Assembly (NCBI GenBank): GCA_964576615.1 | Contig: CAZNUU010000001.1 | Location: 31,309-95,308, forward strand | Direction: 5' to 3' | DNA length: 64,000 bases | Source: an uncultured Candidatus Saccharibacteria bacterium | GTDB taxonomy: Bacteria > Patescibacteriota > Minisyncoccia > Phycocordibacterales > DATDWN01 | Shown here: positions 1-64,000 of the stretch, piece after piece | Layout of the letters: each line of letters begins with the position of its first letter | Numbering within the stretch: position 1 is the stretch's first letter | Program-made: the position numbers and the translations under genes | Notes under the pieces: model-generated | The model's database searches: none | What the model was told of the DNA's origin: nothing | Seen by the model: the letters and a program-made list of their open reading frames with translations, nothing else

Positions 1-710
1 TGGCACGAGAACTACGTAGTATCGGTCTTGGTTTCAATTCAGAACAGATCGCATCGATCTGGGTTGAAAATTTGGTGAAACTGCGAGACCGTTGGTTCGC
101 CGATCCCCGAATTATTCTCGACGGCGTAAAAACCTACGAAGAAGCTTGCGCCAGAATTAAAAACACTGGCAAGAACGGCTTCAAAGGTTTTCGGGAGAAG
201 ATGGTTTCGATGATCATCTACTTCTACATGCACGCGGGCATAATCGGCAAGTGGAAATTCCCGGTTCCCGTCGACTTCCATGTTCTCCGGACACTTTTCT
301 CTCACCAGATTATTGTCCCGGAGAATGGAGACGGCAACGGGTCGGGTTTCTACACCACTACGACTCTGGCCATGGCTCGCTCGGTGGTCCACAATTTCTG
401 CGTTGAATACAAAGTTGACCCAATCGATCTCTGTGATTCGATCTGGATCAACTCAAGACTCGCTTGTAGCCGGCATCCCGGCAACCAATCGCTAGTCTTG
501 CAAAAGGACGCGCGGCGGTCAAAGATTATTCCGGTCTGGAAGTGGAGTGAAGCTCAGACCAGAACAGTGGAGAGCACCTGCGTAGTTTGCTCTGTCGCGC
601 CGACTTGCAGTTGGTGCGTCCCAGCGGCCGAGTACTACGTGAACGGCAAGATTGTTCTTCGAGAGAGAAGGGAGTTGCCCCCACAAGGCAGACTCTTCCT
701 CAAAACCTGA
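1..710 (+). CDS. Hypothetical protein, 5'-partial (frame open from window edge). GC-rich.
   Basis: Frame 3 is open from nt 3 to the stop at 710, so the gene starts upstream of the window. GC is higher than the backbone. No recognisable motif. Confidence 0.45.
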   Translation, partial: ARELRSIGLGFNSEQIASIWVENLVKLRDRWFADPRIILDGVKTYEEACARIKNTGKNGFKGFREKMVSMIIYFYMHAGIIGKWKFPVPVDFHVLRTLFSHQIIVPENGDGNGSGFYTTTTLAMARSVVHNFCVEYKVDPIDLCDSIWINSRLACSRHPGNQSLVLQKDARRSKIIPVWKWSEAQTRTVESTCVVCSVAPTCSWCVPAAEYYVNGKIVLRERRELPPQGRLFLKT

Positions 711-740
711 TACGCCATTTGGAGAAATCCAGGTGGCGTA

Positions 741-1055
741 TTAAATTTGTGCTTTTTGTATTCCTAGTATTGAGAGTAGGACAAGGAGTGTAATTATTCC
801 AAATAGTCCGAGAGTTCGTAGAAAATATGATATTGCTTCGTCCCTTTTATTTTCCAAAAGCAATATTACTGGCCTGTAAAAAAATAGAAAACCCATGACT
901 GCAACTGAAAATACTAAGACAGAGAGAACTCCTATTGGATCAATAATGCTATCCGGAACACCTTGACCAAGATACGCTATGTATCTAAAAAGTGCAGCTA
1001 TTCCAAATATGTATGCAGCTGCCAGGGCCGCATTAATTAGTGGGTTCCATTTCAT
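741..1055 (-). CDS. Small hydrophobic membrane protein (AT-rich, backbone-like)
   Basis: Track ORF 741..1172. The internal Met at 1055 is preferred because the longer version would run through the terminator hairpin at 1131..1153. At least 3 predicted TM helices. Confidence 0.4.
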   Translation of the reverse strand: MKWNPLINAALAAAYIFGIAALFRYIAYLGQGVPDSIIDPIGVLSVLVFSVAVMGFLFFYRPVILLLENKRDEAISYFLRTLGLFGIITLLVLLSILGIQKAQI

Positions 1056-1122
1056 GTGTTTATTATAACGTACGTGCGACAAAAAATGTGGCTTTAGGAT
1101 AGTTACTATAATAATGCAAAAC

Positions 1123-1153
1123 AGAAAAAAGCCTCGGACACTGTGTCCGAGGC
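1123..1153 (-). terminator. Rho-independent terminator downstream of the TonB-like gene
   Basis: Perfect hairpin gcctcggacac/gtgtccgaggc, followed on the minus strand by a T-tract (plus-strand aaaaaa at 1125-1130). Confidence 0.6.
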
Positions 1154-1188
1154 TCTCACATTTCACCATCACAACCCATGCAGTCCCA

Positions 1189-1914: not shown

Positions 1915-2083
1915 GGCGAGCCTCCTCTCGTTTCTGCACTCCTTGGTTGGTGAATATATGTGAAATTACTTTCCAATATAATTTTAATACTAGTGGTTCT
2001 GTAAGACAACAGTCAAAAGACCGATTAATCTAAAGTTATAGACAAAATCCGGAAAAAAGTTATGATAAAAAAAGGAGGCTTTG

Positions 2084-2392
2084 ATGCATATAGCGCTAAG
2101 TACCCACATGAGAGAAGACGCTTTGGGTTTTGCCACCCGACGAGGCTGTGTTCAGCTGACGATATGGCGTCGCAGGCCAGGGGACTTGATTCTCATCGGC
2201 CCCATCCAAGAGTTCGATTCGTTCGAAGAGGGTCGATCTGGGATTGAGTTGCTCCGCGATAAGCTGGTCGGTGAAATTCCCGGCCCTCTGACGATTTATG
2301 TGAAGCCGAGCACCGAGAACGAGTTCACGAGTCTGGCAGATTACGTGGTTAGGCTCGAGCGTGCCCTCAAAGCAAGCTTGGACTCACACTGA
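2084..2392 (+). CDS. Hypothetical small protein (GC-rich cassette)
   Basis: ATG at 2084 with AGGAGG at 2072-2077. GC-rich. Hairpin plus T-tract terminator about 2415-2440. Confidence 0.4.
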   Translation: MHIALSTHMREDALGFATRRGCVQLTIWRRRPGDLILIGPIQEFDSFEEGRSGIELLRDKLVGEIPGPLTIYVKPSTENEFTSLADYVVRLERALKASLDSH

Positions 2393-2455
2393 CACAGTGA
2401 AGCCGGTAGTTGTCAATCATATGACACTACCGGTTTTAAGTTTAAGTAAATTTTG

Positions 2456-2886: not shown

Positions 2887-3014
2887 TGGGACCTCCACTC
2901 TCATTATCTCAAACTAGCAGACATTTGTCAAGTCAATGTTTATTACTTATTCACAATAGAAAAAGGGCTGGGTTCGCGTATATCGCGTCCAGCCCTTCTA
3001 ACGCCGACTATGTA

Positions 3015-3215
3015 TCATGAGGCCCTCCGCAATCGCATAGGTCGCAGATGGACACCGACTTCCTTCTTTGTTTTGTCCATCTCTTCAGCGGTATACCCCG
3101 CTGCTTTGATGGCTCTCGTCAGAAAGTCGGCAAGTTCCGGCCCGATCGGGGTGTCGCCGTAGGCATCGTCGATGATCTCGGCGATTTCCCCCGGCGTCTT
3201 TCTCTCCTTGACCAC
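3015..3215 (-). CDS. Hypothetical small acidic protein (GC-rich cassette)
   Basis: GTG start with GGAGGAGG upstream. 66 aa. No recognisable motif. Confidence 0.3.
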   Translation of the reverse strand: MVKERKTPGEIAEIIDDAYGDTPIGPELADFLTRAIKAAGYTAEEMDKTKKEVGVHLRPMRLRRAS

Positions 3216-3332
3216 GACTACATCACCTCCTCCGCTAATAATTATACATGAATTAACATAAATTTCAAGTAGTCAGAGTCAAGTTTGTGTTGTGAAAGAA
3301 ATAATTAATTGTGGTTGTAGTATAATCAGATT

Positions 3333-7480: not shown

Positions 7481-9057
7481 CATACGATATTGAAACAATA
7501 CTGATGTTGGTTACTTTCACCTTCAATGCATTTTTAGGTTCGGTTATTTTTATCCATAGTGAAAGGAAAAAAAGTGACATTGGTTATGTGTTTTTAATAC
7601 TCGCGTTATTATTTTGGACATTTTCTGTTCTCGGAATAAGAGTTAATCATGATTTAAATACTGTATTTTTTTATCTTGCTCTAAGTCATGTCGCAGGCCT
7701 GAGTATCGCGATAAGCTTCTGGTATTTTGTTGAGACTTTCACAGGTCGTGTTGTCTCAGCAGTAAAACTAGTTCTTGCGATAGTTCCTGCTATATTAATA
7801 AGTTATCTAGCTTTCACCTCAAAAAAATTTATTGTAAATATATTGCAGTTGGATAGTTTAAATAAAGATTTGGTAATGGGCCCCTACCATTTCCTTTTTC
7901 TTGCATACTTTAGTGCTGTAATGATATATGCATTTTATTTGCTGTATCTTATATATGGCAAAAAAGAAAATCACACACTGAATTCAGCCGTTCTATATGT
8001 ATTTTGGGGAACATTCATCTCGACTTTAGTTGGAGCCGCGTTTAATATTTTTTACCTGACCCTTAGAGTATCCGACTATATTGCATGGGGTCCAATAGCG
8101 ACCATAATCATGGTGATTTTTATTTCATACGCAATTATGAGGCTCAACCTGATGAGTATCAAATTGATAGCATCCGAGATTTTTGTTATCGCGCTCTTGA
8201 TTACACTATCAATAAAACTTTTTTTCTCAACCACAACTTCTGAATGGGTTGTAAATGGAATAAGTCTAGGCATTAGTTTTGTTGTTAGTTTCTTCCTAAT
8301 TAGAAGTGTAATGAAAGAGATTTTTCAAAGGCAGAGAGCTGAAGGCTTGGCCAGAGATCTAAAGAATGCAAATGAAGGTCAAGCCAATCTCATTCATGTC
8401 ATGAATCACCAAGTTAAGGGTAGGCTTGGAAATGCAAAAAATATTTTTGCGGAACTTTTGACTGATGATTATGGATCGGTACCGGAATCTATGAAGCCAT
8501 ACTTGGAAAAAGGATTGGAAGAAACCAGCAAGGGAGTTGATTATGTCCAAGGAATTCTACGTGGCGCAAGTGCAGAAAGTGGTCAGATGCAGTTTGATAT
8601 GCTGTCCATGAATCTAAAAGACGTAGTTCAGGACTCATTTACCAGGATGAAAGATTATGCCGAAAAGAAAGGTCTCGCGATAACGCTAGATATAAAACCT
8701 GGTGACTATAACATGAAAGGGGATGCAGTCGAACTGGGCGAATCAGTCCGAAACCTGATCGATAACTCTATAAATTACACCGAGACTGGGAGTATAAATC
8801 TAACCCTGTACTCTAAAGACACTGTAAATCTAATAGAGGTTACGGACACTGGTGTGGGTATTAGTTCAGAGGATATGCCAAAGTTATTTAAATCTGGTGG
8901 CAGAGGTACGGATTCCTTGAAAATAAATGTGAACTCAACTGGTTATGGTTTGGCTTTTGTCAAAGGGGTAGTGGAAGCTCACAAGGGTAGGGTTTGGGTT
9001 GAATCAGGAGGTAAAGGAAAAGGTTCGAGTTTCTTTGTAGAAATACCAAAAACCTAG
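7447..9057 (+). CDS. Membrane sensor histidine kinase
   Basis: About 8 N-terminal TM helices. H-box region (LIHVMNHQVKGRL). HATPase_c N/G boxes (DTGVGIS...GYGLAFVKGVVEAHKGRVWVESGGKGKGSSF). Its start overlaps the end of the KAS III gene. Confidence 0.75.
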   Translation: MAIWFSDYKNMTYDIETILMLVTFTFNAFLGSVIFIHSERKKSDIGYVFLILALLFWTFSVLGIRVNHDLNTVFFYLALSHVAGLSIAISFWYFVETFTGRVVSAVKLVLAIVPAILISYLAFTSKKFIVNILQLDSLNKDLVMGPYHFLFLAYFSAVMIYAFYLLYLIYGKKENHTLNSAVLYVFWGTFISTLVGAAFNIFYLTLRVSDYIAWGPIATIIMVIFISYAIMRLNLMSIKLIASEIFVIALLITLSIKLFFSTTTSEWVVNGISLGISFVVSFFLIRSVMKEIFQRQRAEGLARDLKNANEGQANLIHVMNHQVKGRLGNAKNIFAELLTDDYGSVPESMKPYLEKGLEETSKGVDYVQGILRGASAESGQMQFDMLSMNLKDVVQDSFTRMKDYAEKKGLAITLDIKPGDYNMKGDAVELGESVRNLIDNSINYTETGSINLTLYSKDTVNLIEVTDTGVGISSEDMPKLFKSGGRGTDSLKINVNSTGYGLAFVKGVVEAHKGRVWVESGGKGKGSSFFVEIPKT

Positions 9058-9317
9058 AGTAAATTAATTATCTCAACGAATTTCTTTCCGTACGGCGATA
9101 AGGTGTGTTTGTTTTGAGTCCTACTCAAGAGGCCTGAGAGCGCAAGTAGTGTTAAGTGCTCAGAGATACTGTGTAGATCGGTTCCGGTCTTCTCTGAGAT
9201 TTCTTCAAGGGTAATGTTATTTTCCCGATAAACTAGTCTTAAGATTTCTATCCGCCTGTGATGTGCGGCTCCTTTGAAATATCTCTCGAGTTGTTTTGGG
9301 TCTTTAACTAGAACGAA
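9054..9317 (-). pseudogene. ArsR/SmtB-like winged-HTH regulator ORF with no in-frame ATG/GTG/TTG start
   Basis: An 87-codon open frame (FVLVKDPKQLERYFKGAAHHRRIEILRLVYRENNITLEEISEKTGTDLHSISEHLTLLALSGLLSRTQ...) matches the ArsR HTH signature. It is bounded upstream by TAA and contains no canonical start. Its stop overlaps the histidine-kinase stop. Confidence 0.35.
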
Positions 9318-9339
9318 TTAATTTTATCAGGATGTACGA

Positions 9340-9903
9340 TTAAAGTACATATATGAAGAGTCTATTTCCTATCGGATCTTTGGTGCTGAGGCCTAGGTCA
9401 ATTATTTTTTGGGCTGTCATAGATTTTATTTCAAAGTCGCATGAGGCTATTATAGTTTCAGGTCTAAATTTCTCTCTTGATTTTGATAAAAGTCTGTTTA
9501 CTACCTCAGGATATAGAAATAGAAAGATATGAGTTGCATCCCTGAAATCGGTCTTAAAGAAATTTTCTCTGCGAATCTCAATGTTAGGATGTTTCCTAGT
9601 TTTAAATTTCGCTAACCAATAGGGAACTAAAGCAATCTCAATCCCAACCATCTTAACTTCTGGAAATTGTTTGGATGCGGCTAGTAAAACACGACCATCT
9701 CCGCAACCCAGATCGTAAAGCACGCTAGATTTTTTTAGATCCATGTTCTCGACGATTCGTTCCAGAGCGAAATCTGGCACAGGCACAAATGGCGCATCAG
9801 CTGAAAATGCAGCTATGAATTGAGAAATAACAAACAAAACAAAAACTATAGAAAAGAGTACGAATATTAATATGCTGACCAAAAAAAAGAATAAAACCAT
9901 TGG
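9340..9903 (-). CDS. Class I SAM-dependent methyltransferase
   Basis: Motif I VLYDLGCGDGRVLL. N-terminal TM helix. Start taken at the internal Met at 9903 to avoid overlap with the divergent gene. Confidence 0.55.
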   Translation of the reverse strand, partial: PMVLFFFLVSILIFVLFSIVFVLFVISQFIAAFSADAPFVPVPDFALERIVENMDLKKSSVLYDLGCGDGRVLLAASKQFPEVKMVGIEIALVPYWLAKFKTRKHPNIEIRRENFFKTDFRDATHIFLFLYPEVVNRLLSKSREKFRPETIIASCDFEIKSMTAQKIIDLGLSTKDPIGNRLFIYVL

Positions 9904-9925
9904 TAATTTATGATAACATGCAATC

Positions 9926-10606
9926 ATGTCACAGGAGATGGAGTGGGATAGGGAATATAAAAAATCACAGCTTCTAACTAAGGAGAATAAACCGCAAAAT
10001 GATGTGGTTAGGTTTACGGATTTTCTGGAGGAAAATGGGCTAAAGATGGATGGACTCAAGATCTTGGATATTGGTTCTGGTACGGGCCGAAACAGCCTCT
10101 ATTTTGCTCAAAGAGGAGCCAAAGTTTTTGGCATAGAGTTATCTAGAAATGCTTTGGAAATAGCAGAGAAAAATACAAAGGATGCAGGTCTTGAAATCGA
10201 ATATATGAAAGGTAATATCGGGTGGGCTTTTCCATTTGAAGATAACTCGTTTGATATTTTACTGGATGTTACATCATCTAATTCTCTTTCCGAATCCGAA
10301 AGAAATATTTATCTCATCGAGTCTAAACGAGTTTTGAAAGAAGGTGGGTATTTTTTTGTAAAAGCATTGTGTAAAGATGGTGATAAAAATGCGAAGACTT
10401 TACTTAAAGATTCCCCAGGCAAAGAAAAAGATACTTATGTATTACCTGGTCTTAATGTAACGGAAAGAGTTTGGTCCAAAAATGACTTTGTCACAACTTA
10501 CGAAAAATATTTTACAATTTTACATCTAGAAAAGAAAACAAGTTATCCAAGAATGAATGGTCGCTCGTACAAACGAAACTGGTGGATTTGCTATATGAAA
10601 AAGTAA
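9926..10606 (+). CDS. Class I SAM-dependent methyltransferase
   Basis: Motif I ILDIGSGTGRNSLYFA and motif II VFGIELS. 226 aa. Confidence 0.6.
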   Translation: MSQEMEWDREYKKSQLLTKENKPQNDVVRFTDFLEENGLKMDGLKILDIGSGTGRNSLYFAQRGAKVFGIELSRNALEIAEKNTKDAGLEIEYMKGNIGWAFPFEDNSFDILLDVTSSNSLSESERNIYLIESKRVLKEGGYFFVKALCKDGDKNAKTLLKDSPGKEKDTYVLPGLNVTERVWSKNDFVTTYEKYFTILHLEKKTSYPRMNGRSYKRNWWICYMKK

Positions 10607-10653
10607 GACATAAAACTAAGCCCCCGGACCACTATGGATCCGGGGGTTGGTAC

Positions 10654-11922
10654 TCACTTTCCCAAGGTGATTACTGTGCGCGCTCTTTGAGGGGTCATTT
10701 GATCGACGAGATTTGTCAGTTCCTCGTGGGGTATCGTGTCCACGTAGTTCAGATACATCTCGGCGGCAATTGTTTCCCCCGCAAGAACTATTTCAGAGAT
10801 GGCTACGGCCACGCTTCTGGTTGGGCTGGGGATCTGCATGTCGAGGTTGTTGCGCATGCCTGCTCTTACAGTGGCCCACCATTCCCTGGACCTGATTTGG
10901 GGGTCACTTCTTAGCATTTCCAGCAGGGCATTCTCGACCGCAGGGATTTTCTCAGAACTGGTATTGACCTCAAACCCAATGAAACCACCGTCGAGGGAGT
11001 GGAACCTTTCTTGGCTAGCGGTATATGCCAACTGCTTGTTCTCACGTACAGCGCGGTATAGAGGTGAGCCAAGCCCCCCAAACGTGAAGATCTGACCCAG
11101 CAAACCGTACCTCACTAAGTCGGTCCAACTTTTGAGAGCTGGGATCGGGAATACGACTGAGACCTGAGACGGCTCGAAGGAAGATTGAGCAACGAACCTC
11201 TTCTCCTTTGGCCAAGTCAGTTCACCATAAGATGGAGAACTCCTTCTTGGGGTTAGGCTGTTGGAAGGAAGTGACGCCAGAGGCTCGCTTAGAACCTGCA
11301 TGACTTCGTCTCTCTCCAAAGAGGTTGAGACCACGAAGATCATCCTGGATCTGTCATAACCTTTCATCCAGGCATTTCTAAGCACGTCCGGTGTCATCGA
11401 ATCAAGTGAGCTTGTTGTGCCAAGGGTACGATTCCCCAGCACATGCTCAGGAAACAATGATTCCCAGAGGTTGTACGAGTGACACCTCTCCAGACTTCCA
11501 AGAGCTCGCTTGATTTCCTGACCGATGATGTCTCTTTCGGCGACGATACCCTCGTCTGTGAGGAGCGGGCGAGCAACCAAATCAGTTACCAACCTTACTG
11601 CGGTTGGCAAAAATTTGTCGGGGATAGTAGCCCAGAAATTGGTACGAAGGGCGCTTGTGTTCGCGCCTGATTCGCCGCCAAATCTGGCTATTGTACCCTT
11701 TGTGTCAGTGTACCCATTCGGGAAGTTCACTGTTCCCCGGAATGGTGCGTGCTCGAACCAGTGGTAGAGACCTGGCTCTCCGCATGATGTGTCGTCGGCT
11801 GCTCCGACGAGGACTGTGAGTGAAATCCCAGTGCACTTTATGACCGACGGTAGCCGCTCATAAAATATGGGAATGCCATGTGGGCCAACTACTCTTTCAA
11901 ATTCAGTCATCCAAACCTCCAA
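10654..11922 (-). CDS. M16-family zinc metallopeptidase (pitrilysin/insulinase-like). GC-rich cassette.
   Basis: Inverted zinc-binding motif HxxEH (YHWFEHAPFRGT) near the N-terminus. 422 aa. GGAGG 6 nt upstream of the ATG. Hairpin at 10624-10650 followed by a T-tract on the minus strand. Confidence 0.7.
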   Translation of the reverse strand: MEVWMTEFERVVGPHGIPIFYERLPSVIKCTGISLTVLVGAADDTSCGEPGLYHWFEHAPFRGTVNFPNGYTDTKGTIARFGGESGANTSALRTNFWATIPDKFLPTAVRLVTDLVARPLLTDEGIVAERDIIGQEIKRALGSLERCHSYNLWESLFPEHVLGNRTLGTTSSLDSMTPDVLRNAWMKGYDRSRMIFVVSTSLERDEVMQVLSEPLASLPSNSLTPRRSSPSYGELTWPKEKRFVAQSSFEPSQVSVVFPIPALKSWTDLVRYGLLGQIFTFGGLGSPLYRAVRENKQLAYTASQERFHSLDGGFIGFEVNTSSEKIPAVENALLEMLRSDPQIRSREWWATVRAGMRNNLDMQIPSPTRSVAVAISEIVLAGETIAAEMYLNYVDTIPHEELTNLVDQMTPQRARTVITLGK

Positions 11923-12025
11923 AGTTTTGGTGGTGCTGTCTTTTCATACTATAATACGCAATTTTAAGTTAGTCAAATTTGACATATATTGACTTTATTA
12001 TCTTTTTCTGTATTATAAATTAATC

Positions 12026-12157
12026 ATGAAAAACATGATTAATTATCTAAATACTCATGGAAACGGCCGAAAGTGGCTTTGCACTTTTGCTGTCTCACTA
12101 AATCAGACTGCTTCTCCATTTGCAGGAGAAAGATCGCGCAGTGTTTTAATTGTTTGA
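12026..12157 (+). CDS. Candidate 43-aa small ORF (MKNMINYLNTHGNGRKWLCTFAVSLNQTASPFAGERSRSVLIV) in AT-rich spacer. Speculative.
   Basis: A sigma70-like promoter (TTGACT, 16 nt, TATTAT) lies just upstream, so the transcript would be near-leaderless. A palindrome AATCATGaaaaaCATGATT overlaps the start. A strong terminator follows at 12181-12210. No homology recognised. Confidence 0.2.
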   Translation: MKNMINYLNTHGNGRKWLCTFAVSLNQTASPFAGERSRSVLIV

Positions 12158-12180
12158 ATAAGTGACATATTTGAACGCTT

Positions 12181-12210
12181 AAAATGCCGCGTGAATCGCG
12201 GCATTTTTAG
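12181..12210 (+). terminator. Rho-independent terminator between the small ORF and the ABC gene
   Basis: aaaatgccgcg-tgaat-cgcggcatttttag: an 11-bp GC-rich stem followed by a T-tract. Confidence 0.65.
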
Positions 12211-12257
12211 TTCTTTTGTGTTCTTTCACATTCACAAATTCAGAATAGGAGGCGCTC

Positions 12258-14030
12258 TTGGAGAGAGAAAAGAAAAATCCACTCTCTTACCTTTTCGGTA
12301 AGACGTGGAAGTACTCACGGGGCAATCGCAGGAATGTAATTCTGTACATACTCATGCTCATCGCGAGCGAGTGTGTAAACACGTTCTGGTCGCCAGTAGT
12401 TATGGCCAATATCATGAACGTTGTGACGCGTGAGGGTGTAAGGAGGGAGAATTTATCAAAACTTCTTTTCCTGCTCTCACTTCTCATCGTAAGAACAGTC
12501 CTGTCCTGGGGGTTTCATGGCCCAGCTCGAGTAATCGAGCAGCTGAACGCCTTCAGGTCTAGAAGAAACTATTGGCAGTATCTTCTGGAAGGGGTGATGA
12601 ACTTGCCACTTGAGTGGCACACTGAGCATCACTCTGGGGACACCATCGACAAGATGAACAAAGGTACTGGTGCACTCTTTGATTTCTCAGGCGATTCGTT
12701 TGAGATAATCAAGCCTCTTGTTCTCCTTGTCGGCTCGCTTAGCATGATTGTCTACTTTAGCCCGATCTCGGTTGTCATTGTCGCAGTGATGATGGCACTT
12801 GGGGCTTGGGTTACGGTGGCTTTTGATGCAACGCTTGGTCCACAATACAGGCAGCTCAATCGTTTCGACAACAAGATTTCTGAACGCATTTTTGACACGG
12901 TCAGTAATATTTCGACTGTGATAATCTTGCGCGTAGAAAAACTTGTTTTTGAAACAATCATGAGAAAGGTTGATGAACCGTTCGATCTGTTCAAGCGAAA
13001 TGCAATCTTGAACGAATGGAAGTGGTTCTGGACCAGTGTCTGCGCAAATCTCATGGTGGTCTTCGTTCTCGGGTTTTATCTCTACCAGCATCTCGGTACT
13101 TCTGCCGGTGTTCTGGTCGGGAACGTCTATCTTCTCTTGAATTATCTCAACAAAGTTGGGGAACTGTTCTATCAGTTCACCTCACTTTATGGTGGGACGA
13201 TCAGAAGAAAGTATCGTGTCATGAATGCTGAAGAACTCTCGAAAGAGTTTCAGCCTTCTACGTTCGCAAACCACGTATTGCCAAAAGTGTGGAGTGAACT
13301 CTCGATCCGAAACCTCAACTTCTCCTACGGAGGAGGTGAGGGTGATCCACATCTGGATGATGTTTCAACACGGATCCAGCATGGGGAACACATTGCCATC
13401 GTCGGTGGCAGCGGTAGTAGCAAGACGACATTTCTCATGCTAATGAGAGATCTCTATCATCCGCAGAGTCTTACACTCTCTGTTGATAGCGTGGAAATTC
13501 CACATGGGTTCGAAGGTATAAGCAGAGCAATTTCGCTTGTGCCACAGGATCCTGAGATTCTGGCTACGACTATACGAGAGAACATCACGCTCGGCGCCGA
13601 GTACGACGAGAGGTTGGTTCGACACTACACAGACATGGCTTGCTTTACGGATGTGGTCGATAGTTTACCAAAAGGGTTCGACTCATCTGTAAAAGAAAAG
13701 GGGGTCAATCTCTCAGGTGGTCAGGTTCAACGTCTGGCTCTCTCGAGAGGACTCCTGGCTTGTCACGGCAAGGACATTGTCCTTCTCGATGAGCCGACCT
13801 CAAGTCTCGATGTGGTAACTGAGATTACAGTTTACCGGAACATTCTCGTAGCGTTCCGAAACAAAACCGTAATCTCAACGGTGCACAGACTTCAACTTCT
13901 CCCGCTTTTCGATCGTGTTTGCATGTTCGAGAAGGGGAGGATCGTTGGGTCTGGAACTGTTCAGGAACTCTTACTGAGTTGCCCGCAGTTCGAGGCTCTC
14001 TGGAATAGGCAGTTTGTTGATCCAGTGTGA
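12258..14030 (+). CDS. ABC exporter, fused TMD-NBD half-transporter with non-canonical Walker A. GC-rich cassette.
   Basis: Six-TM N-terminal domain. Walker A reads VGGSGSSKTT, with Ser where the conserved Gly of GxxxxGK[ST] sits. Signature LSGGQVQRLALSRGLL. Walker B VLLDEPTSSLD. H-loop TVHRL. AGGAGG sits 6 nt upstream of the TTG start at 12258. Terminator hairpin at 14033-14060. Confidence 0.8.
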   Translation: MEREKKNPLSYLFGKTWKYSRGNRRNVILYILMLIASECVNTFWSPVVMANIMNVVTREGVRRENLSKLLFLLSLLIVRTVLSWGFHGPARVIEQLNAFRSRRNYWQYLLEGVMNLPLEWHTEHHSGDTIDKMNKGTGALFDFSGDSFEIIKPLVLLVGSLSMIVYFSPISVVIVAVMMALGAWVTVAFDATLGPQYRQLNRFDNKISERIFDTVSNISTVIILRVEKLVFETIMRKVDEPFDLFKRNAILNEWKWFWTSVCANLMVVFVLGFYLYQHLGTSAGVLVGNVYLLLNYLNKVGELFYQFTSLYGGTIRRKYRVMNAEELSKEFQPSTFANHVLPKVWSELSIRNLNFSYGGGEGDPHLDDVSTRIQHGEHIAIVGGSGSSKTTFLMLMRDLYHPQSLTLSVDSVEIPHGFEGISRAISLVPQDPEILATTIRENITLGAEYDERLVRHYTDMACFTDVVDSLPKGFDSSVKEKGVNLSGGQVQRLALSRGLLACHGKDIVLLDEPTSSLDVVTEITVYRNILVAFRNKTVISTVHRLQLLPLFDRVCMFEKGRIVGSGTVQELLLSCPQFEALWNRQFVDPV

Positions 14031-14078
14031 ATGTCCGCCCCGCGCCAAAATGGCGCGGGGCAAACTTTAGGAGGAGTT

Positions 14079-14654
14079 ATGGCTGAAAAAGTTGTGTTTC
14101 TCTCGGGCAGGAAAACAAACCTACGTCCCGTGAGTCGTGCAGATATCCCTACACTACTCCGCTGGGTCAATGACCCAGAAGTGCGGGACTTTGTTCTCGG
14201 GACCTTTCCGTGGACGGAGAAGATGGAAGAAGACTGGTTCGACAAACTGGGCAAGGATGAGAGCAAGGTGACTCTGGTGATCGAGACCAAGGAGGGCAAA
14301 GCCATTGGAACGATGGGGATTCACAACATAAACTGGGTCAGCCGCACAGGCACGACTGGGGCGATGATCGGGGAAAAGGATTGTTGGGGGCAGGGTTATG
14401 GCACCGACGCCAAGCTCGTTCTCCTGCAATACGCCTTTGATACCTTGAATCTCTTCCGGATTCGCTCGGACGTGATTGGGTTCAACGATCGTAGCGTGAG
14501 GTACAGTCTGCGCTGCGGTTACAAGGTGGAGGGCACTCGGCCAAAGGATATCTTCAAGAGAGGACAATATTGGGATCGAATCGAACTCGGAGTTTTCCGG
14601 GAAGACTGGTTCCCAATTTGGGAAAAGTATCAGCAAACCGGCAAGGTCCGGTGA
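14079..14654 (+). CDS. GNAT N-acetyltransferase (RimJ/RimL-like). GC-rich cassette.
   Basis: RimL-like layout: WVNDPEVRDF..., acetyl-CoA motif region GQGYGTDA, and YAFDTLNLFRIRSDVIGFNDRSVRYSLRCGYKVEG. AGGAGG 6 nt upstream of the ATG at 14079. Terminator gggctcgc-gaaa-gcgagccc plus TTTCTTT at 14661-14690. Confidence 0.7.
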   Translation: MAEKVVFLSGRKTNLRPVSRADIPTLLRWVNDPEVRDFVLGTFPWTEKMEEDWFDKLGKDESKVTLVIETKEGKAIGTMGIHNINWVSRTGTTGAMIGEKDCWGQGYGTDAKLVLLQYAFDTLNLFRIRSDVIGFNDRSVRYSLRCGYKVEGTRPKDIFKRGQYWDRIELGVFREDWFPIWEKYQQTGKVR

Positions 14655-14716
14655 TTATGAGGGCTCGCGAAAGCGAGCCCTTTCTTTATGAGGATTTATG
14701 TTAAAATTTAAATCTT

Positions 14717-16498
14717 ATGGAAACTATTAGGGAGAAACATACAAATGTTTCAGTTGGACAAATAATTGAAAAATTTTGGCAGAGCACTGGAAGGTATAAG
14801 CCTTGGTTTCTCGTTGCTTTTATCTTCTTTCTACTTGCTCAAGTTGCCACTGTTATAGTACCTATATTTTATAAAAGTTTTTTTGATATTCTCGGAAGTC
14901 ATCCAGACAAAACAGAAGCAGTGAAGAGTTTGATGAGAATAATAGAAATTGTTCTCATTCTGCGACTTACCAACTGGCTTTCCTGGAGAATTGCAATAAA
15001 TATTTATCAAAATATGCAAGCTAGGGTTATGGCTCTTATCAAACAAACTTCTTTTGATTATCTAACGAGCCACTCTTATAGTTTTTTTGCAAATACATTT
15101 GGCGGTAGTCTAGTCCAAAGATTGAATCGTTTCAGTAGAGCGTTTGAAGCGATAACCGACAACATAACTTTTAGTTTACTTCCATTGTTTGTAACAATCA
15201 TTGGTTCAATGATTGCAGTCTATAGGTTTGCACCACTACTCTCTGGGGTATTGGCAATCTGGATAGTAGCATTTGGAGTTTTTAGCGTGTCGTTTTCTCG
15301 TTGGAAGATGAAATATGATTTAATTTCCTCTGAGGCTGATTCGGTAACTACTGGTTATCTTGCAGATGTCATTACTAATAATTCGTCAGTCTCTTTCTTC
15401 ACTGGGCATGAATATGAATCGATCGGATTCAGAGAAGTAACAGATGATCAGACCAAGAAGACATTATATTCATGGAAACTTGGTGATATAACTGATGCAG
15501 TTCAAATGTTCTTACTCATCCTAGTAGAGTTTTTTATCTTTTATTACGCAATTAAATTTTGGTCACAAGGTCTCATAACAGTTGGTACCTTTGTCTTGGT
15601 CCAGACGTATATTATTTCATTGTCGGGTCAGCTCTGGGGTTTGGGTAAAATTGTTAGAAATTTATACCAAAACATAGCCGAATCTAAGGAAATGGTTGAA
15701 ATCCTAGATACGCCGCATGAAATTAGGGATTTACCAGGAGCCAAACCTATTAAAATAGAAAGTGGCCAAATAGAATTCGATAATGTCACTTTTGGTTTTT
15801 CTAAAGACAGCAAGATAATAAATGATTTTAATCTTAAAATTAAGGGTGGAGAAAAAGTGGCGATTGTCGGTCCAAGTGGTTCAGGCAAGACTACTCTCGT
15901 CAGGCTAATTATGCGAGTTTATGATGTAGGCAAAGGTGCGGTAAAGATTGATGGCCAAAATATTAAAGATATTACTCAAAGTAGTTTGCGTGAAAGTATT
16001 AGTTTTGTGCCACAGGATCCGGTGTTATTTCACAGGACGTTAATGGATAATATCCGATACGGTAGGCGACACGCCACCGACCAAGATGTTATTGCAGCTG
16101 CAAAATTAGCCCATTGTGATGAATTTATCGATAAACTCCCCTTAGGTTACCAGACATATGTGGGGGAAAGAGGAATAAAGTTATCAGGAGGTGAGCGTCA
16201 AAGAGTGGCAATTGCAAGAGCAATATTAAAACACGCACCCATACTAATATTTGATGAAGCTACATCTAGTTTGGATTCGTATTCTGAGCATTTGATTCAG
16301 GATGCATTGGAGAATCTTATGAAAAATTGTACTACCATAGTTATAGCGCACAGATTATCAACTATAAAAAAGATGGACAGAATTATTTCAATGAGGGAAG
16401 GTCAGATCGTCGAGGAAGGTACACACGATGAGCTTACAAGTAAGGAATCTGGTCTCTATAAGAAACTTTGGGATCTACAAAGTGGTGGGTTTTTGTAA
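14717..16498 (+). CDS. ABC exporter, fused TMD-NBD half-transporter with canonical motifs (AT-rich, backbone-like)
   Basis: Walker A GPSGSGKTT. Signature LSGGERQRVAIARA. Walker B ILIFDEATSSLD. H-loop IAHRLSTI. No SD. Confidence 0.85.
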   Translation: METIREKHTNVSVGQIIEKFWQSTGRYKPWFLVAFIFFLLAQVATVIVPIFYKSFFDILGSHPDKTEAVKSLMRIIEIVLILRLTNWLSWRIAINIYQNMQARVMALIKQTSFDYLTSHSYSFFANTFGGSLVQRLNRFSRAFEAITDNITFSLLPLFVTIIGSMIAVYRFAPLLSGVLAIWIVAFGVFSVSFSRWKMKYDLISSEADSVTTGYLADVITNNSSVSFFTGHEYESIGFREVTDDQTKKTLYSWKLGDITDAVQMFLLILVEFFIFYYAIKFWSQGLITVGTFVLVQTYIISLSGQLWGLGKIVRNLYQNIAESKEMVEILDTPHEIRDLPGAKPIKIESGQIEFDNVTFGFSKDSKIINDFNLKIKGGEKVAIVGPSGSGKTTLVRLIMRVYDVGKGAVKIDGQNIKDITQSSLRESISFVPQDPVLFHRTLMDNIRYGRRHATDQDVIAAAKLAHCDEFIDKLPLGYQTYVGERGIKLSGGERQRVAIARAILKHAPILIFDEATSSLDSYSEHLIQDALENLMKNCTTIVIAHRLSTIKKMDRIISMREGQIVEEGTHDELTSKESGLYKKLWDLQSGGFL

Positions 16499-17476: not shown

Positions 17477-17479
17477 GTG

Positions 17480-17727: not shown

Positions 17728-17755
17728 GTTTAAAAAACTCTTCGAAAAAATAAAT

Positions 17756-19318: not shown

Positions 19319-19322
19319 TCAA

Positions 19323-44261: not shown

Positions 44262-44264
44262 ATA

Positions 44265-44958: not shown

Positions 44959-44960
44959 GA

Positions 44961-53615: not shown

Positions 53616-54695
53616 TTATCTCACAGCTTCTATTATTCCTCCACCAAGGCAAATATCTGCGTCATATAATACAGCTGACTGACCTACCGAAATTGCACTC
53701 TGCCTAGCCATAAAAATAATAGCCCAGCCTTCATGCGTTTTTTTAATTGAGCATTCTTGCTTATCCTGTCTATATCTTATCCTAACGGAAATAATTTCAG
53801 GCAAAGTATGTACCCCAGAGATTATGTTTAGTTCTTTTATCAAAATGGACTTTGCCGAAAACACACTTTCCACCTCTTTTTCCTTATTTGCCACAGTAAT
53901 TGTATTCTCGTTCAAATTCTTAGCAATTACGAAGTACCTAGGATCTTCCGGTGTTTTTTTAGATATAGTAAAACCATGCCTTTCCCCTATAGCAAAAAGG
54001 AGTGCACCAGCGTGCTTGCCAACGACTTCACCTTTCACATTTAGAACATTGCCCTCTTTTGTCTTAATATAATGTTTTAAGAAATCTTTCATATCGACTT
54101 TCCCTATAAAGCAAAGGCCTTGGCTGTCCTTCTTCTCCGCAGTAGGTAAACGGAATTTCCTAGCAAGATCTCTCACCTCACTTTTTTTCATCCCCCCTAC
54201 AGGGAAAAAGGTGTGACTCAATTCTGCCTGAGTCAACGTGTACAGAAAATAACTTTGATCCTTTTCTTGGTCGACGGATTCCTGAAGCTCGAATACACCA
54301 CCCACTTTTCTTATTTGAGCATAATGTCCCGTAGCAATAAAATCCGCTCCCATCTCTTTTGCTCTTTTGAGAAATGCTCCAAATTTTATATATTTATTAC
54401 AAAATACATCTGGATTCGGAACTCGTCCCAAACTGTATTCTCTAACCATATAATCCACCACTTCTTCTTTGTATTCTTTTTCTAAATCAATGGTCAAAAA
54501 TGGCACACCTAAGGTTGCACAAACTCGCATAGCACTTCTCCTTTCTTCTTTCCAATTACAAGGAAGCCAAGCTGGATTCCAGACCTTTAGAAAAACACCT
54601 GTAACGTCGTAACCTGCTTTTTGAAGTAGGGCTAAAGAAACAGAGCTATCAACTCCTCCCGAGACACCCACAAAGACCTTTTTCACCTGCGACAT
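53616..54695 (-). CDS. mnmA: tRNA-specific 2-thiouridylase
   Basis: PP-loop VGVSGGVDSSV. MnmA layout with catalytic Cys residues (CNKYIKFGAFL, GLCFIGK). Confidence 0.85.
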   Translation of the reverse strand: MSQVKKVFVGVSGGVDSSVSLALLQKAGYDVTGVFLKVWNPAWLPCNWKEERRSAMRVCATLGVPFLTIDLEKEYKEEVVDYMVREYSLGRVPNPDVFCNKYIKFGAFLKRAKEMGADFIATGHYAQIRKVGGVFELQESVDQEKDQSYFLYTLTQAELSHTFFPVGGMKKSEVRDLARKFRLPTAEKKDSQGLCFIGKVDMKDFLKHYIKTKEGNVLNVKGEVVGKHAGALLFAIGERHGFTISKKTPEDPRYFVIAKNLNENTITVANKEKEVESVFSAKSILIKELNIISGVHTLPEIISVRIRYRQDKQECSIKKTHEGWAIIFMARQSAISVGQSAVLYDADICLGGGIIEAVR

Positions 54696-54761
54696 GGCGC
54701 CAGTTTATCATACTTGTTGACAAATAAGCATTTTTGATTAATTTTATTTTAGGAGGTGACT

Positions 54762-54998
54762 GTGAGATTTAGCGAGATAAAGCAGTGGCAAATAATAGTC
54801 ACTGCCTCGATCGGGCCATTTCCCGGCTACACCAAATGGAAGAAGACTTCCGTAAATCATGCAGAGTGGGCAGGGTTTGACAGCCTGCCACCTGGGGTGA
54901 GTAAGGAAGAAATGCTCTCTAGTCGCGGCAAAGTTCTCGAGCTTGGCTTCGAAGAAGAAGTCAGTCTCGCCGGAATGGCACGTTATAACTTCAGATAA
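54762..54998 (+). CDS. Hypothetical small protein (GC-moderate cassette with SD)
   Basis: AGGAGG at 54751-56. GTG at 54762 is preferred over the track start at 54756. The hairpin ggcacgttat...ataacgtgcc spans the stop codon. Confidence 0.3.
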   Translation: MRFSEIKQWQIIVTASIGPFPGYTKWKKTSVNHAEWAGFDSLPPGVSKEEMLSSRGKVLELGFEEEVSLAGMARYNFR

Positions 54999-61523: not shown

Positions 61524-62441
61524 TTATAACGGAAGAGGTTTTAAAATTCCATTCTGGTTTACAACTTCATCGAAGCAATAGTGGCCAGCTGGATGAGTCC
61601 AAGACGTATAACCAACTGGTCTCATATAAATATTGGGTGAATTATTTTGTTTTGAATCTTCATTAAACTCGGCACATATTTTATACGAAGTATTCCCAGT
61701 TTTTTGGTACTCATATGGCTTTCCGCTCTGTGGATCATTTTGAATATAGTAATAGTTAAGTGCAGACAAATCCTGAATTGAATTCGGCAGAGTATTTTTT
61801 TGCGAATAATAACTTTGCACACTACTGTTTAGATTCATTAGATCATTTATTTTTTGCTCATCGTACTTATATAGTCTCTGTGTCCTGGGAGAACCTAGAA
61901 CATAAAATCCCCATACAATGGAAGCTAGGATAACTACAGCTGCAACAATTACCCAGATTTTTCTGGAACTAGAGTTTAATTTAGATCTTATTTCAGAGAT
62001 GTAGTAGAAAAAGATTAACCCAGTCACAACCAAAACAACAAGAACCTTGAGAAGAAACGCCGCTGTTAGATCTTGACCATCAATAAAATAGTAAAGAACT
62101 GTAACTAGATCCACAGCCATAGCAACCCCGGCGACAAAGAGAGTGATATACGTAAGCCATCGTTTTACTCCCAGATTTCTTTTCTCTGGCTCTCCCACAT
62201 AACCCTTCTCAAGTAACCACATAAGTAAAACAAAAACTGGAAAGAAAATTATGAGGGTTGCAACTGGCCAAGAGATGGTACTGCTTGAGACATAGTAATA
62301 CCCATTATTTGTAGTTTGCGGATATGCGCGATTTATAACAGTGAAGAGAAGATTGATTAAACTTATCGCCACTGTATAGAGAGCTACGATAGCACCCAGA
62401 TTTAAAAAGAAATCCTTTGCTGTTGTTTTGGTTGGATTCAT
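61524..62441 (-). CDS. Polytopic membrane protein (305 aa)
   Basis: About 6 TM helices. C-terminal soluble domain with Cys pair. Confidence 0.4.
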   Translation of the reverse strand: MNPTKTTAKDFFLNLGAIVALYTVAISLINLLFTVINRAYPQTTNNGYYYVSSSTISWPVATLIIFFPVFVLLMWLLEKGYVGEPEKRNLGVKRWLTYITLFVAGVAMAVDLVTVLYYFIDGQDLTAAFLLKVLVVLVVTGLIFFYYISEIRSKLNSSSRKIWVIVAAVVILASIVWGFYVLGSPRTQRLYKYDEQKINDLMNLNSSVQSYYSQKNTLPNSIQDLSALNYYYIQNDPQSGKPYEYQKTGNTSYKICAEFNEDSKQNNSPNIYMRPVGYTSWTHPAGHYCFDEVVNQNGILKPLPL

Positions 62442-62552
62442 TATTTAAGTATAAATATTAATGCTTAATTATAACACAAATAGATTCTGCCTTAATTTGA
62501 CAACCATAATTTAAATGATATTGTTTGCCCTGGAGAAAAAGGAGCTCCTCGC

Positions 62553-62873
62553 ATGCTGGAAAAAAGACCAAGACGACCGCTTCACGAAGTGCTGCCCGAT
62601 CTGATTCGGTTGGCCTCGAGTGATGACCTGCTGTGCTATGGAGGTCTCATCGTACTTACGGAAATCCCGAAAAACCATGACCAGATCGCTGCCGCCTGGA
62701 AGAAGCGCTGCGCTGACATGGGCTGGGGCGAGAACGCAGCACAGCACGTCATGGACGATCTTGCCGCTCAGAAGCGCGCCGCCGAAGACAAGGCCGCCGC
62801 CAAGGTTGTGAGCATGGTCCACACACCCGCGGCTGGGGCTCCCGCCGAGGGCGAGCCTTCGCTCAGCAGCTGA
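62553..62873 (+). CDS. Hypothetical small Ala-rich protein (GC-rich cassette)
   Basis: AGGAG upstream of the ATG. GC-rich. Terminator caggcgtacga-ttaacc-tcgtacgcctg at 62879-62906 followed by an A/T tract. Confidence 0.35.
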   Translation: MLEKRPRRPLHEVLPDLIRLASSDDLLCYGGLIVLTEIPKNHDQIAAAWKKRCADMGWGENAAQHVMDDLAAQKRAAEDKAAAKVVSMVHTPAAGAPAEGEPSLSS

Positions 62874-62920
62874 AACACCAGGCGTACGATTAACCTCGTA
62901 CGCCTGAAATTATTTATAAA

Positions 62921-63943
62921 CTATATTTTGAATTCAATTACGTCACCGTCTTTGACTATATATTCCTTCCCTTCAGTCCTAACCAATCCCTTTTCTCTAG
63001 CAGCTACAAATGAACCTGCCACAATCAAATCATCGTAAGCAACTACTTCCGCACGGATAAATTTATCTTTAAAATCTGTATGGATCGCAGTGCCAGCCAT
63101 TGGCGCATTCCAACCCTTGGTTATTGTCCAAGCACGAGTCTCATCTTCACCGGTTGTGAAATAAGTAATTAAATTGAGTGTCTCGTAAGCTTTTTTTATC
63201 AAATCATCTAGACCCTTTTCAAAAACAGGATCAATCACTACATAGTTCCCGGGGACTTTCGATTTTATATCTAAATTATTCTGAGCAGCTTCAGAAACAT
63301 TTAGTGCATACATTATTGGTTTTGCGGTAAGCAAGTTTAGTTGTTTAACTACCACTTTCTCTTTTTCATCCAGTTCCAGTGTATTTGCCAACTTGCCTTC
63401 TTTTAGGACAGCGAGAACTCTGCCGAGAATTTCATTTTCAAGTATCGCCTCTTTTCTGCGAGCGTCCGAAGGATTAGCTTTGTTTGCCTTAACCTCTTTT
63501 TGCAAATTGGAGATTCTTTTGGAAACAGTTTCTTCGTCCGCAAAAACAAGTTCTAGATTTATAACTTCAATATCTGAAAGCGGTTCCACTTTGCCATGCA
63601 CATGAATGATGTCTTTATCTTCAAAGACTCTGACAACTTCTAGAATTGCATCAACTTCTCGAATATTAGTTAGAAATTTATTGCCAAGGCCCTCGCCTTG
63701 GGATGCTCCTTTAACAAGGCCAGCGATATCTACGAATTCAACCACAGCTGGAATTGTTTTTTGAGACTTTGAAAGCTGTGTCAACTTTTCAAGTCTAGGG
63801 TCAGGCACAGGCACAATACCGACAGATGGGTCAATCGTACAAAATGGATAATTTTCTGCCGGAACAGATTTCTTTGTAAGCGTATTAAAAAGCGTGGACT
63901 TCCCCACGTTTGGCAATCCAACAATTCCAATCGAAAGTGACAT
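62921..63943 (-). CDS. ychF: Ribosome-binding ATPase YchF (Obg-family GTPase)
   Basis: G1 motif [16 protein letters not shown]. YchF-like TGS C-terminal domain. 340 aa. Confidence 0.85.
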
Positions 63944-64000
63944 GGCTAAATAATGGCTTATTTCAATGATTAAATCAACTAAATTTGACAGTTGCCCTTA

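Follow-up and report, generated by a model that had tools for sequence, protein, structure and literature searches.

The stretch of DNA analysed here, 64,000 nucleotides (nt) of contig CAZNUU010000001.1 from an uncultured Candidatus Saccharibacteria bacterium (positions 31,309–95,308; hereafter the window), raises the question of whether one replicon can hold two ways of marking a translation start, and where the second comes from. A preliminary description had depicted the window as a mosaic of GC-rich gene cassettes, led by Shine–Dalgarno (SD) sequences, in an AT-rich backbone without them, and had offered recent foreign origin, an unusual gene-capture mechanism or a chimeric assembly as explanations. 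Two compositional classes of genes with matching initiation signals are indeed present, and the pattern is clade-wide rather than a peculiarity of this replicon. We favour, with moderate confidence, the reading that the cassettes form the flexible portion of the genome, acquired horizontally on separate occasions and from several GC-richer sources. The observations that carry this reading are the anatomy and statistics of the cassettes, their distribution across the clade, the donor side of a TonB gene and the age of one cassette.

The window has an overall GC content of 40.7% (computed over the 64,000 nt) with a bimodal distribution, as expected of the mosaic and not of uniform DNA. Backbone housekeeping open reading frames (ORFs) have a GC content of 0.36–0.42 and a pooled GC content at third codon positions (GC3) of 0.34. 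Cassette ORFs, which are mostly short, have a GC content of 0.48–0.61 (about 0.53 for the class) and a GC3 of 0.38–0.71; the pooled GC3 of the small cassettes is 0.58. The cassette class comprises 17 complete ORFs grouped in 13 units (Table 1), and together with a partial ORF at positions 1–710 it accounts for 8,370 bp, or 13.1% of the window. In a codon-usage model, the proposed frame outscored the two other frames of the same strand in 18 of 18 ORFs; this same-strand result alone was used, because the model did not distinguish sense from in-register antisense, the TonB and GNAT genes included. Co-orientation is nearly complete in the backbone (49 of 50 genes), and 11 of the 13 cassette units are antisense to the local backbone. 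Most units occupy gaps between core transcription units, and they are scattered over at least 12 slots. The GC-rich islands are not known structured RNAs, since Rfam and ARAGORN matched only a tRNA-Glu (positions 2455–2527), to which a permissive threshold adds one T-box leader; this candidate explanation was rejected. Conserved 16S and 23S motifs were absent from the window and from every fetched locus. Only the cassette cluster at 1–3.3 kb adjoins a tRNA gene.

The two classes differ in how translation starts are marked. GGAGG was counted as an SD sequence when an ORF of 50 or more amino acids (aa), on either strand, started 3–10 nt downstream of it, and the count was compared with those of control pentamers of the same composition. 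The window contains 94 GGAGG, of which 21 (22%) lead such an ORF, compared with 2–13% for the controls. Sixteen of these 21 precede GC-rich ORFs; the rest are internal to backbone genes, plus one before an aminoacyl-tRNA synthetase (aaRS) gene (17726). GGAGG stands before 16 of the 17 complete cassette ORFs and none of the 50 backbone genes (Fisher p = 1.5e-14), which confirms the SD-less backbone and nearly, if not entirely, the earlier statement that every GC-rich ORF has this motif: ORF 62553 is the sole complete cassette ORF without it and carries GGAGC. The spacers measure 4–6 nt, and 10 nt for the ORF starting at 3215. Start codons follow the same division, with ATG in 43 of 43 clear backbone cases and GTG or TTG in 5 of 17 cassette ORFs.

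Transcription signals differ as well. Thirteen of 17 cassette ORFs, compared with 5 of 50 backbone genes, are followed by a hairpin with a free energy (dG) of −14 kcal/mol or lower and a T-rich tail (Mann–Whitney p = 4e-6), and the majority of the five backbone hairpins belong to a convergent cassette as well. No convincing terminator follows the other four cassette ORFs, so that the earlier claim of one for every GC-rich ORF was too broad. At the level of consensus sequence, all 13 units have TTGAC(A/T)-N17-TATAAT-like promoter boxes upstream, in DNA of 0.28 GC. The cassette −10 box lies 17–43 nt from the start, where scored, and the cassette mRNAs would therefore be leadered. By comparison, a TATAAT-like (TAnnnT) −10 box lies 3–12 nt from the ATG in 13 of 50 backbone genes and in none of the 17 cassette ORFs; this position suggests that about a quarter of the core genes are leaderless. 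The remaining backbone genes have A-rich upstream regions (42% A at −20 to −1) and no SD. The two initiation grammars thus coincide with the two compositional classes, as the preliminary description had it.

The compositional steps at the cassette borders are sharp, as they would be if the genome of one organism had been joined to those of GC-rich ones during assembly or binning. Seven Logan contigs, independently assembled from runs SRR12313479 and SRR12313480, nevertheless cross cassette–backbone borders. Six match the window at 100% (positions 196–2356, 987–2099, 8427–14012, 39269–40928, 39433–41099 and 43833–45899) and one at 99.6% (43583–46044); among them, L083 spans the M16 peptidase unit, and L169 and L170 span the junction of the four-ORF unit with dnaK. 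Because these contigs reproduce the junctions, the mosaic is not a chimera, and for the junctions tested the suggestion of a chimeric assembly is ruled out. Furthermore, dozens of relatives that were assembled independently show this architecture too, as does L090, a second AT-rich contig, and 13 tiny inserts, each framed by promoter, SD and terminator, do not resemble mis-joins. An artefact is thus extremely improbable.

Contig L167, from SRR12313480, differs from the window at 9 of 2,462 positions, and the contig from the other run is identical to the window. At least two closely related strains therefore coexist, both with the 3′ end of cassette c43461. When exact proteins were looked up to find close strains that carry or lack the cassettes, all matches came from this one population, in the two runs.

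The pattern was traced across the clade through DnaK, which retrieved 80 loci at 73–93% identity from metagenome-assembled genomes (MAGs) labelled Zambryskibacteria, Parcubacteria, Paceibacterota or Minisyncoccia. By DnaK identity and synteny, we assign the window to the chromosome of a Zambryskibacteria-like member of the Patescibacteria (candidate phyla radiation, CPR). Many of the closest relatives (L003, L006, L008 and others) are deposited as ‘uncultured Candidatus Saccharibacteria bacterium’, a label that looks unreliable because they share synteny and 80–93% DnaK identity with Zambryskibacteria and Parcubacteria MAGs. The gene order rpsI-grpE-orf98-dnaK-dnaJ is conserved among the relatives, and the intergenic slots vary widely: dnaK|dnaJ, orf98|dnaK and rpsI|grpE range from under 100 bp to 2.6 kb. 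The dnaK|dnaJ gap measures 100 bp in L004, 597 bp (GC 0.52) in L003 and 2,638 bp (GC 0.51) in L012; in most distant relatives it is shorter than 150 bp. In the window, units lie between dnaJ and dnaK, between dnaK and orf98, and between grpE and rpsI, which bears out the earlier remark that cassettes interrupt the grpE-dnaK-dnaJ region.

An SD-like motif precedes only 16 of 755 core genes (2%) in the 80 relatives and 3 of 73 in relatives with a GC content of at least 0.44, and SD-less core initiation is therefore a trait of the clade that is independent of GC. GGAGG-led stand-alone ORFs are enriched clade-wide, representing 4.3% of GGAGG occurrences as against 0.4–2.6% for G-rich control pentamers. 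ORFs at least 0.08 GC above their backbone number 13.4 per 1,000 motif occurrences for GGAGG and 0–5 for the controls, and SD spacers peak at 5–6 nt across the clade. The density of GGAGG-led stand-alone ORFs is 2.0 per 10 kb in the window; the clade median is 0.46 and the maximum 3.3. When SD-led GC-rich ORFs were clustered, 151 of 168 clusters were singletons. Their GC follows that of the backbone across relatives with a slope of 0.77, and a constant absolute GC, which would denote a single donor pool, was rejected. In L084 and L085, SD-led GC-rich genes are interleaved with TATAAT-adjacent AT-rich genes, as in the window.

L085, a 672-kb CPR contig, also contains blocks of 0.30–0.36 GC (13100–15850 and 18000–19100) inside a backbone of about 0.50 GC that includes ribosomal-protein genes. 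The compositional patchwork in this group thus runs in both directions.

The origin of one cassette can be traced. The ORF at 1189–1914 contains a TonB_C domain (E = 1e-20; TIGR01352), and its translation has a hydrophobic N-terminus and a proline-rich tract. A metagenome scan returned 80 loci with relatives that are 45–54% identical over the full length and up to 80% identical over the C-terminal domain; 79 of them are uniformly of 0.60–0.71 GC. In locus L115, tonB heads a tonB-exbB-exbD-exbD operon beside a pyrophosphatase gene and relA, and NCBI holds the identical pyrophosphatase from a MAG of the Vicinamibacterales (Acidobacteriota). GGAGG lies upstream of 27 of 32 donor-side tonB genes, which often start with GTG (the window tonB reads ...GGAGGctcgccGTG), and the SD and start codon of the window gene therefore came with it. 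The GC3 of the donors is 0.79 and that of the window copy 0.65, a difference that implies partial amelioration. Judged from these comparisons, TonB is clearly foreign, deriving from a high-GC diderm of Acidobacteria-like type (one locus Vicinamibacterales).

The one AT-rich TonB locus, L090, originates from groundwater filtrate (0.1 µm). Its solitary TonB gene (559–1260) forms an island of 0.59–0.63 GC, flanked by a DNA polymerase III delta'-like gene and by frr. The C-terminal domains of the two CPR-type proteins are 70% identical to each other and about 80% identical to high-GC homologues; being nearer to the latter than to each other, they suggest two separate acquisitions. The domain is under constraint, since it is still about 80% identical to Acidobacteria-type TonB. 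Among the genes adjacent to tonB, no exbB or exbD was found in the window or in L090. Two CPR-type, AT-rich genomes, of a kind of organism believed to have no outer membrane, hold a solitary TonB gene with neither ExbB nor ExbD adjacent.

Other cassettes have a different background. Homologues of the M16 peptidase, at most 48% identical, occur in CPR-type contigs (one named Taylorbacteria), the exact protein being on record (P0001); one of them is convergent with a methyltransferase gene, the same neighbour as in the window. The M16 copies in L084 and L085 are also SD-led, so that the SD precedes this gene in three lineages, and its GC is about 0.50–0.52 in three genomes with differing backbones. 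The best homologues of the ABC exporter are 52% identical in an exhaustive HMMER search, and their amino-acid composition is of the type found in AT-rich genomes. The GARP/FYMINK ratio is about 0.66 for these homologues, 0.71 for the window backbone and 2.2 for the TonB donors. The M16, ABC exporter and GNAT genes would derive from mid-GC sources, probably other Patescibacteria. Many of the remaining cassettes would be small lineage-specific proteins without a traceable origin, some of them resident before the split from the nearest sampled relatives. In particular, c62553 is an orphan that matched only itself among 5.8 billion proteins.

One cassette can be dated relative to the divergence of its carriers. 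The overlapping gene pair c39749/c39966 occupies the same dnaK|dnaJ slot in L003 (2620–3103), antisense to dnaK, with amino-acid identities of 42% and 29%, and c39966 is also present in L012 (about 13900–14163). CxxC and LEALDG motifs are conserved. All copies are GC-rich and GGAGG-led, and those in the relatives have a GC3 of 0.54–0.59, compared with 0.35 (L003) and 0.45 (L012) for dnaK. Fourfold-site identity between the window and L003 is 0.32–0.47 in dnaK and dnaJ, that is, synonymous sites are saturated, and because the slot has been kept across this divergence the pair is old. ‘Recent’ foreign origin, as a general description of the cassettes, is thereby contradicted. The first protein of the pair has an N-terminal MKFExCLEC motif and the LEALDG motif at its C-terminus. 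The pair splits dnaK and dnaJ, which are contiguous in more distant relatives.

These data bear on the proposal that the cassettes were all imported recently from a single high-GC organism, such as the host of an episymbiont, with the SD as donor signature. TonB fits it, with its high-GC relatives, its GGAGG and GTG, and one Acidobacteriota locus; GGAGG is strikingly uniform across the units; and seven cassettes (TonB, c36473, c39115, c39749, c39966, c42233 and c62553) have a high-GC-type composition at first and second codon positions (GC1/GC2) with a partly decayed GC3. However, c39749/c39966 predates the split from L003, M16 and the ABC exporter belong to families of low- or mid-GC, CPR-type genomes, the GC of the individual codon positions points to sources anywhere between about 45% and about 69% GC, and even TonB is only about 50% identical over its full length to any sampled donor. 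A single high-GC host donor for all cassettes is therefore unlikely on this evidence, and the claim of high-GC foreign origin stands for TonB and fails for M16 and the ABC exporter. The idea of an episymbiont's host as donor is speculation that draws on TonB only.

The GC3 of a further set of cassettes (c0, c2653, M16, ABC, GNAT, c19323, c43461 and c54762) lies above the value predicted from GC1/GC2. By composition, these look derived from sources of about 48–57% GC (roughly 50–62% by GC3 alone). The excess is also what would be seen if the cassettes were native and vertically inherited, their GC kept high by selection on mRNA structure, stability or codons, or by GC-biased gene conversion. 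The shared cassette families are GC-rich in three deeply diverged genomes, and the near-constant GC of M16 in three genomes and the covariation of SD-led ORF GC with backbone GC (see above) point the same way. On the other hand, TonB is foreign, slots are empty in many close relatives and most clusters are singletons, and highly expressed native genes (ribosomal proteins and dnaK) show no rise in GC3. Moreover, nothing in the data would confine such a bias to SD-led genes. We regard a native origin as improbable, though slightly less so than the single donor.

Horizontal acquisition from several sources has points against it, too. Because GC3 exceeds the prediction from protein composition in several cassettes, simple amelioration from high GC does not explain them, and mid-GC donors or a force that raises GC3 are needed. 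For most small ORFs, Pfam, PHROG and PADLOC gave no match, and the case for their foreign origin is one of composition. No integrase or transposase domain was found among the cassette and backbone proteins scanned, and no flanking direct repeats, target duplications, shared boundary sequence or attC-like core at the units. Terminator hairpins come with the inserts and are not resident in the slots, and the TonB donors examined mostly run straight into exbB. A leader as such needs no SD, since the leadered native gene aspS has none (see below). Finally, an anti-SD was detected in only 48% of Parcubacteria (Tsurumaki et al., PMC9297842).

With respect to the route of insertion, the preliminary description had reported no integrase, transposase, attC-like core or flanking repeats, and this holds among the proteins scanned and at the unit boundaries. 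The unusual gene-capture mechanism that it had considered finds no positive evidence here. A dedicated system, integron-like or otherwise, would account for inserts that are short, usually of one gene, found repeatedly in the same slots among relatives, and followed by hairpins. However, the units show no attC-type core or shared boundary sequence, the cassette and backbone proteins scanned include no integrase, every unit comes with a promoter, and the hairpins, being perfect GC stems followed by T-tracts, look like ordinary intrinsic terminators, which makes such a system highly improbable. Borrowing of resident bidirectional terminators by antisense inserts was considered and rejected, as a hairpin follows dnaK in 18 of 27 loci with an insert and in 4 of 31 without. 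An origin of the cassettes from phage or defence systems was also rejected. PHROGs and PADLOC gave no match (10 ORFs scanned each), two scans of viral contigs gave no relatives (c19323 among those tested), and NCBIfam and permissive Pfam searches gave nothing for the small ORFs scanned.

Turning to the SD sequences themselves, the leader of the backbone gene aspS shows what native signals look like on a leadered mRNA. This leader is a candidate T-box riboswitch, its T-box-like part at 17498–17691, with the T-box motif AAACAGGGUGGCACCGCG, a very short stem I with the loop AUGACA (GAC = Asp) and a terminator consisting of a hairpin (dG −27) and TTTTTGTTT. The GGAGG at 17714 is the 3′ arm of that terminator, and aspS as a native SD-led gene was rejected accordingly; so was the GC-rich patch at 17446–17700 as a cassette, as it corresponds to the leader. 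Because the aspS start has no SD, the native grammar is SD-less even for a leadered mRNA.

We infer that the cassette SDs are functional and that the predicted promoters and terminators work. The opposite has been weighed, namely that the anti-SD is lacking or masked, so that GGAGG sequences are relics or are read by specialised ribosomes and the cassettes are silent or conditionally translated. Besides the low frequency of the anti-SD in Parcubacteria, bS21 is often absent there, and the anti-SD-lacking group overlaps the group lacking uL1 (PMC9297842). The core is SD-less across the clade, GC-richer members included, as is the native leadered gene, and a precedent exists in the SD-blind ribosomes of Bacteroidia (PMC7797042, PMC9976891, PMC13000453). 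Conversely, GGAGG is kept at the right spacing in the non-coding leader of c39749 across saturated divergence and before M16 in three lineages, which supports the persistence of functional SDs, and the clade-wide peak of spacers at 5–6 nt agrees with it. The ORFs are intact, and the TonB domain is conserved while its GC3 decays. We consider silent or conditionally translated cassettes quite unlikely. A related scheme of two regimes, in which the core has become SD-less through loss or masking of the anti-SD and the GGAGG-led cassettes are quarantined or read by a specialised ribosome state, would seem a little less improbable.

The core class is AT-rich, co-oriented with replication and translated without SD. 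Under horizontal acquisition from several sources, foreign segments consisting of an SD and an ORF, sometimes with a terminator, would have been inserted repeatedly into gaps between core units, the likeliest route being illegitimate or homology-assisted recombination after DNA uptake. Promoters would arise readily in DNA of 0.28 GC, and units insulated from core operons would be those retained. GC-rich, leadered, structured mRNAs may be unable to use the SD-independent or leaderless route of the lineage, and only imports that carry or keep a strong SD would be expressed and retained.

Table 1 Cassette units of the window and the aspS locus; ‘corrected’ marks revised start positions.
Feature	Extent	Strand	Promoter boxes	SD and start	ORF	Hairpin	Remarks
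c0 (partial)	1–745	+			stop at 710; runs off window start	downstream	GC 0.52, GC3 0.61–0.64; no Pfam, PHROG, PADLOC or NCBIfam match; reproduced in Logan contig L001
TonB unit	1127–1975	−	promoter-like region	GGAGG 1921–1925, GTG 1914; spacer 6 nt	1189–1914	1127–1157, dG −22.5, T-tract	GC 0.61
c2084	2040–2438	+	TATGAT (−10)	GGAGG 2074–2078	2084–2392 (102 aa)	2398–2438	GC 0.54; no family match; AlphaFold predicted local distance difference test (pLDDT) 58.8, too low for fold search
c2653	2625–2945	−	TTGACA/GATAAT	GGAGG 2892–2896	2653–2886 (77 aa)	2625–2655	
c3015	2962–3290	−	TATAAT (−10)	GGAGGAGG 3226–3233, GTG 3215	3015–3215 (66 aa)	2962–2998	
M16 peptidase unit	10621–11985	−	TTGACT-N17-TATTAT	GGAGG 11916–11920, ATG 11910 (corrected)	10654–11910 (418 aa)	10621–10646, bidirectional	Peptidase_M16 and M16_C domains
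ABC exporter + GNAT unit	12180–14689	+		GGAGG 12248–12252, TTG 12258	12258–14030	14037–14061	ABC_membrane and ABC_tran domains; one of two units co-oriented with backbone
GNAT part of the same unit		+		GGAGG 14070–14074, 14079 (corrected)	14079–14654	14651–14689, terminator	Acetyltransf_3 domain
c19323	19287–19776	−	TTGACT-N17-TATGAT	GGAGG 19706–19710	19323–19700 (125 aa)	19287–19320	
c36473	36400–36673	+	TTGACT	GGAGG 36464–36468	36473–36646 (57 aa)	36649–36673	
Four-ORF unit	39040–40276	+		GGAGG at 39104, 39401, 39740, 39955; all four starts corrected	39115–39339, 39412–39687, 39749–39979, 39966–40256	39347–39372, 39689–39729	between dnaJ and dnaK, antisense to both
c42233	42160–42479	+		GGAGG 42224–42228	42233–42448 (71 aa)	42451–42479, bidirectional	between dnaK and orf98
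c43461	43385–43722	+	TTGACA	GGAGG 43452–43456, GTG 43461 (corrected)	43461–43697 (78 aa)	43696–43722	between grpE and rpsI
c54762	54690–54998	+	TTGACA	GGAGG 54752–54756, GTG 54762 (corrected)	54762–54998 (78 aa)	no convincing terminator	
c62553	62480–62906	+	TTGACA	GGAGC 7 nt before ATG	62553–62873 (106 aa)	62879–62906, bidirectional	GC 0.61
aspS T-box-like leader	17498–17731						Rfam full-length alignment 30.6 bits, below gathering score 93
aspS				true start ATG 17756, no SD	17756–19051		class II Asp/Asn/Lys (D/K/N)-type aaRS gene

Several further features of the window were noted. Two neighbouring ABC half-transporter genes with a common architecture occupy 12258–16498, one on either side of the GNAT gene. 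The first has a GC of 0.48, is GGAGG-led and starts with TTG, the second has a GC of 0.37 and no SD, and their mutual identity is 23%; their products may pair as a heterodimer whose halves differ in origin. Searches of solved structures by sequence gave non-significant hints only, and the predicted structure of c39966 (pLDDT 52) was of too low confidence for a fold search. The sequence pattern of the 57-aa protein of c36473 and its non-significant Protein Data Bank matches (ORF56/CopG-like, Arc repressor; E = 0.17–0.9) weakly suggest a ribbon-helix-helix DNA-binding fold. Cumulative GC skew reaches its maximum at about 32400–32870, where gene orientation flips from all-plus to all-minus (convergent), which suggests a replication terminus. 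The non-coding zone of about 470 bp at this position holds an inverted repeat, GTAGATTGTGC...GCACAATCTAC, at about 32486–32521.

Among known systems, the cassettes resemble phage morons, which are independent transcription units inserted between conserved phage genes (PMC3594210). Like morons, they place a single gene or a small group, equipped with a promoter and a factor-independent terminator (here at the level of consensus sequence), between conserved syntenic genes, and are compositionally distinct, patchy among relatives and horizontally spread. However, the carrier is a bacterial chromosome, the flanking genes being dnaK, dnaJ, grpE and those for ribosomal proteins, aaRSs, and cell wall or cell division; no PHROG or viral-contig relatives were found for the ORFs tested; and the cassettes also differ from their surroundings in translation-initiation signals. 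Integron cassettes are promoterless and expressed from a common Pc promoter, whereas each unit here has its own promoter boxes, is dispersed and mostly antisense, and no attC site or IntI was found. Horizontally acquired genomic islands and their amelioration were reportedly described by Lawrence and Ochman in 1997. Like genomic islets, the cassettes have atypical GC and codon usage, patchy presence and one clear distant donor gene, with GC3 decaying ahead of GC1/GC2 in several of them. The closest homologues lie in a distant taxon and not in relatives for TonB, but not for M16 or the ABC exporter. Unlike genomic islands, the units are of single-gene size and spread over many slots, no mobility genes were found among the proteins scanned, and some cassettes are still GC-rich after very long residence.

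With regard to translation, the genes of Bacteroidia have A-rich regions upstream and no SD, except for a very small number, rpsU among them, that are SD-led (PMC7797042, PMC9976891, PMC13000453). The anti-SD of Bacteroidia is sequestered by bS21, bS18 and bS6. The core examined here is similarly SD-less genome- and clade-wide, with A-rich upstream regions and an SD-led minority. It differs in that many core genes look leaderless and bS21 is often absent in Parcubacteria (PMC9297842). It differs also in that the minority consists of many accessory, GC-rich, partly foreign genes rather than one autoregulated ribosomal-protein gene. Actinobacteria and Deinococcus have mixed genomes with leaderless and SD-led genes (‘group C’ of GeneMarkS-2). 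They share with the window a −10 box a few nt upstream of ATG, found there at the first genes of operons, coexisting with SD-led genes; in those groups, however, the SD serves native operon-internal genes, whereas operon-internal core genes here are SD-less and the SD is largely confined to compositionally atypical accessory units. The anti-SD-loss subgroup of Parcubacteria (PMC9297842) belongs to the same broad lineage and is consistent with an SD-less core; that study covers rRNA and ribosomal proteins rather than mRNA signals and describes no SD-led gene cassettes. Our literature search found no paper on mRNA initiation signals in CPR bacteria (Patescibacteria).

The Patescibacteria make up a large share of bacterial diversity, and their translation starts and gene gain are poorly known. 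The clade-wide split between an SD-less, partly leaderless core and autonomous, GGAGG-led, GC-rich, mostly antisense accessory units provides a simple sequence rule by which the flexible part of such MAGs can be flagged, and it is a warning for gene callers whose training assumes only one model of initiation. It also sharpens the puzzle of the Parcubacteria that lack an anti-SD, namely whether their SD-led genes are translated and by what. The Acidobacteria-type TonB in two CPR-type genomes is a concrete inter-phylum transfer that can be used to seek partner organisms. Should the two-regime scheme prove true, dependence on the SD would be a built-in filter or switch for horizontally acquired genes, and the Acidobacteriota donor of at least one gene may point to a host or partner of these bacteria.

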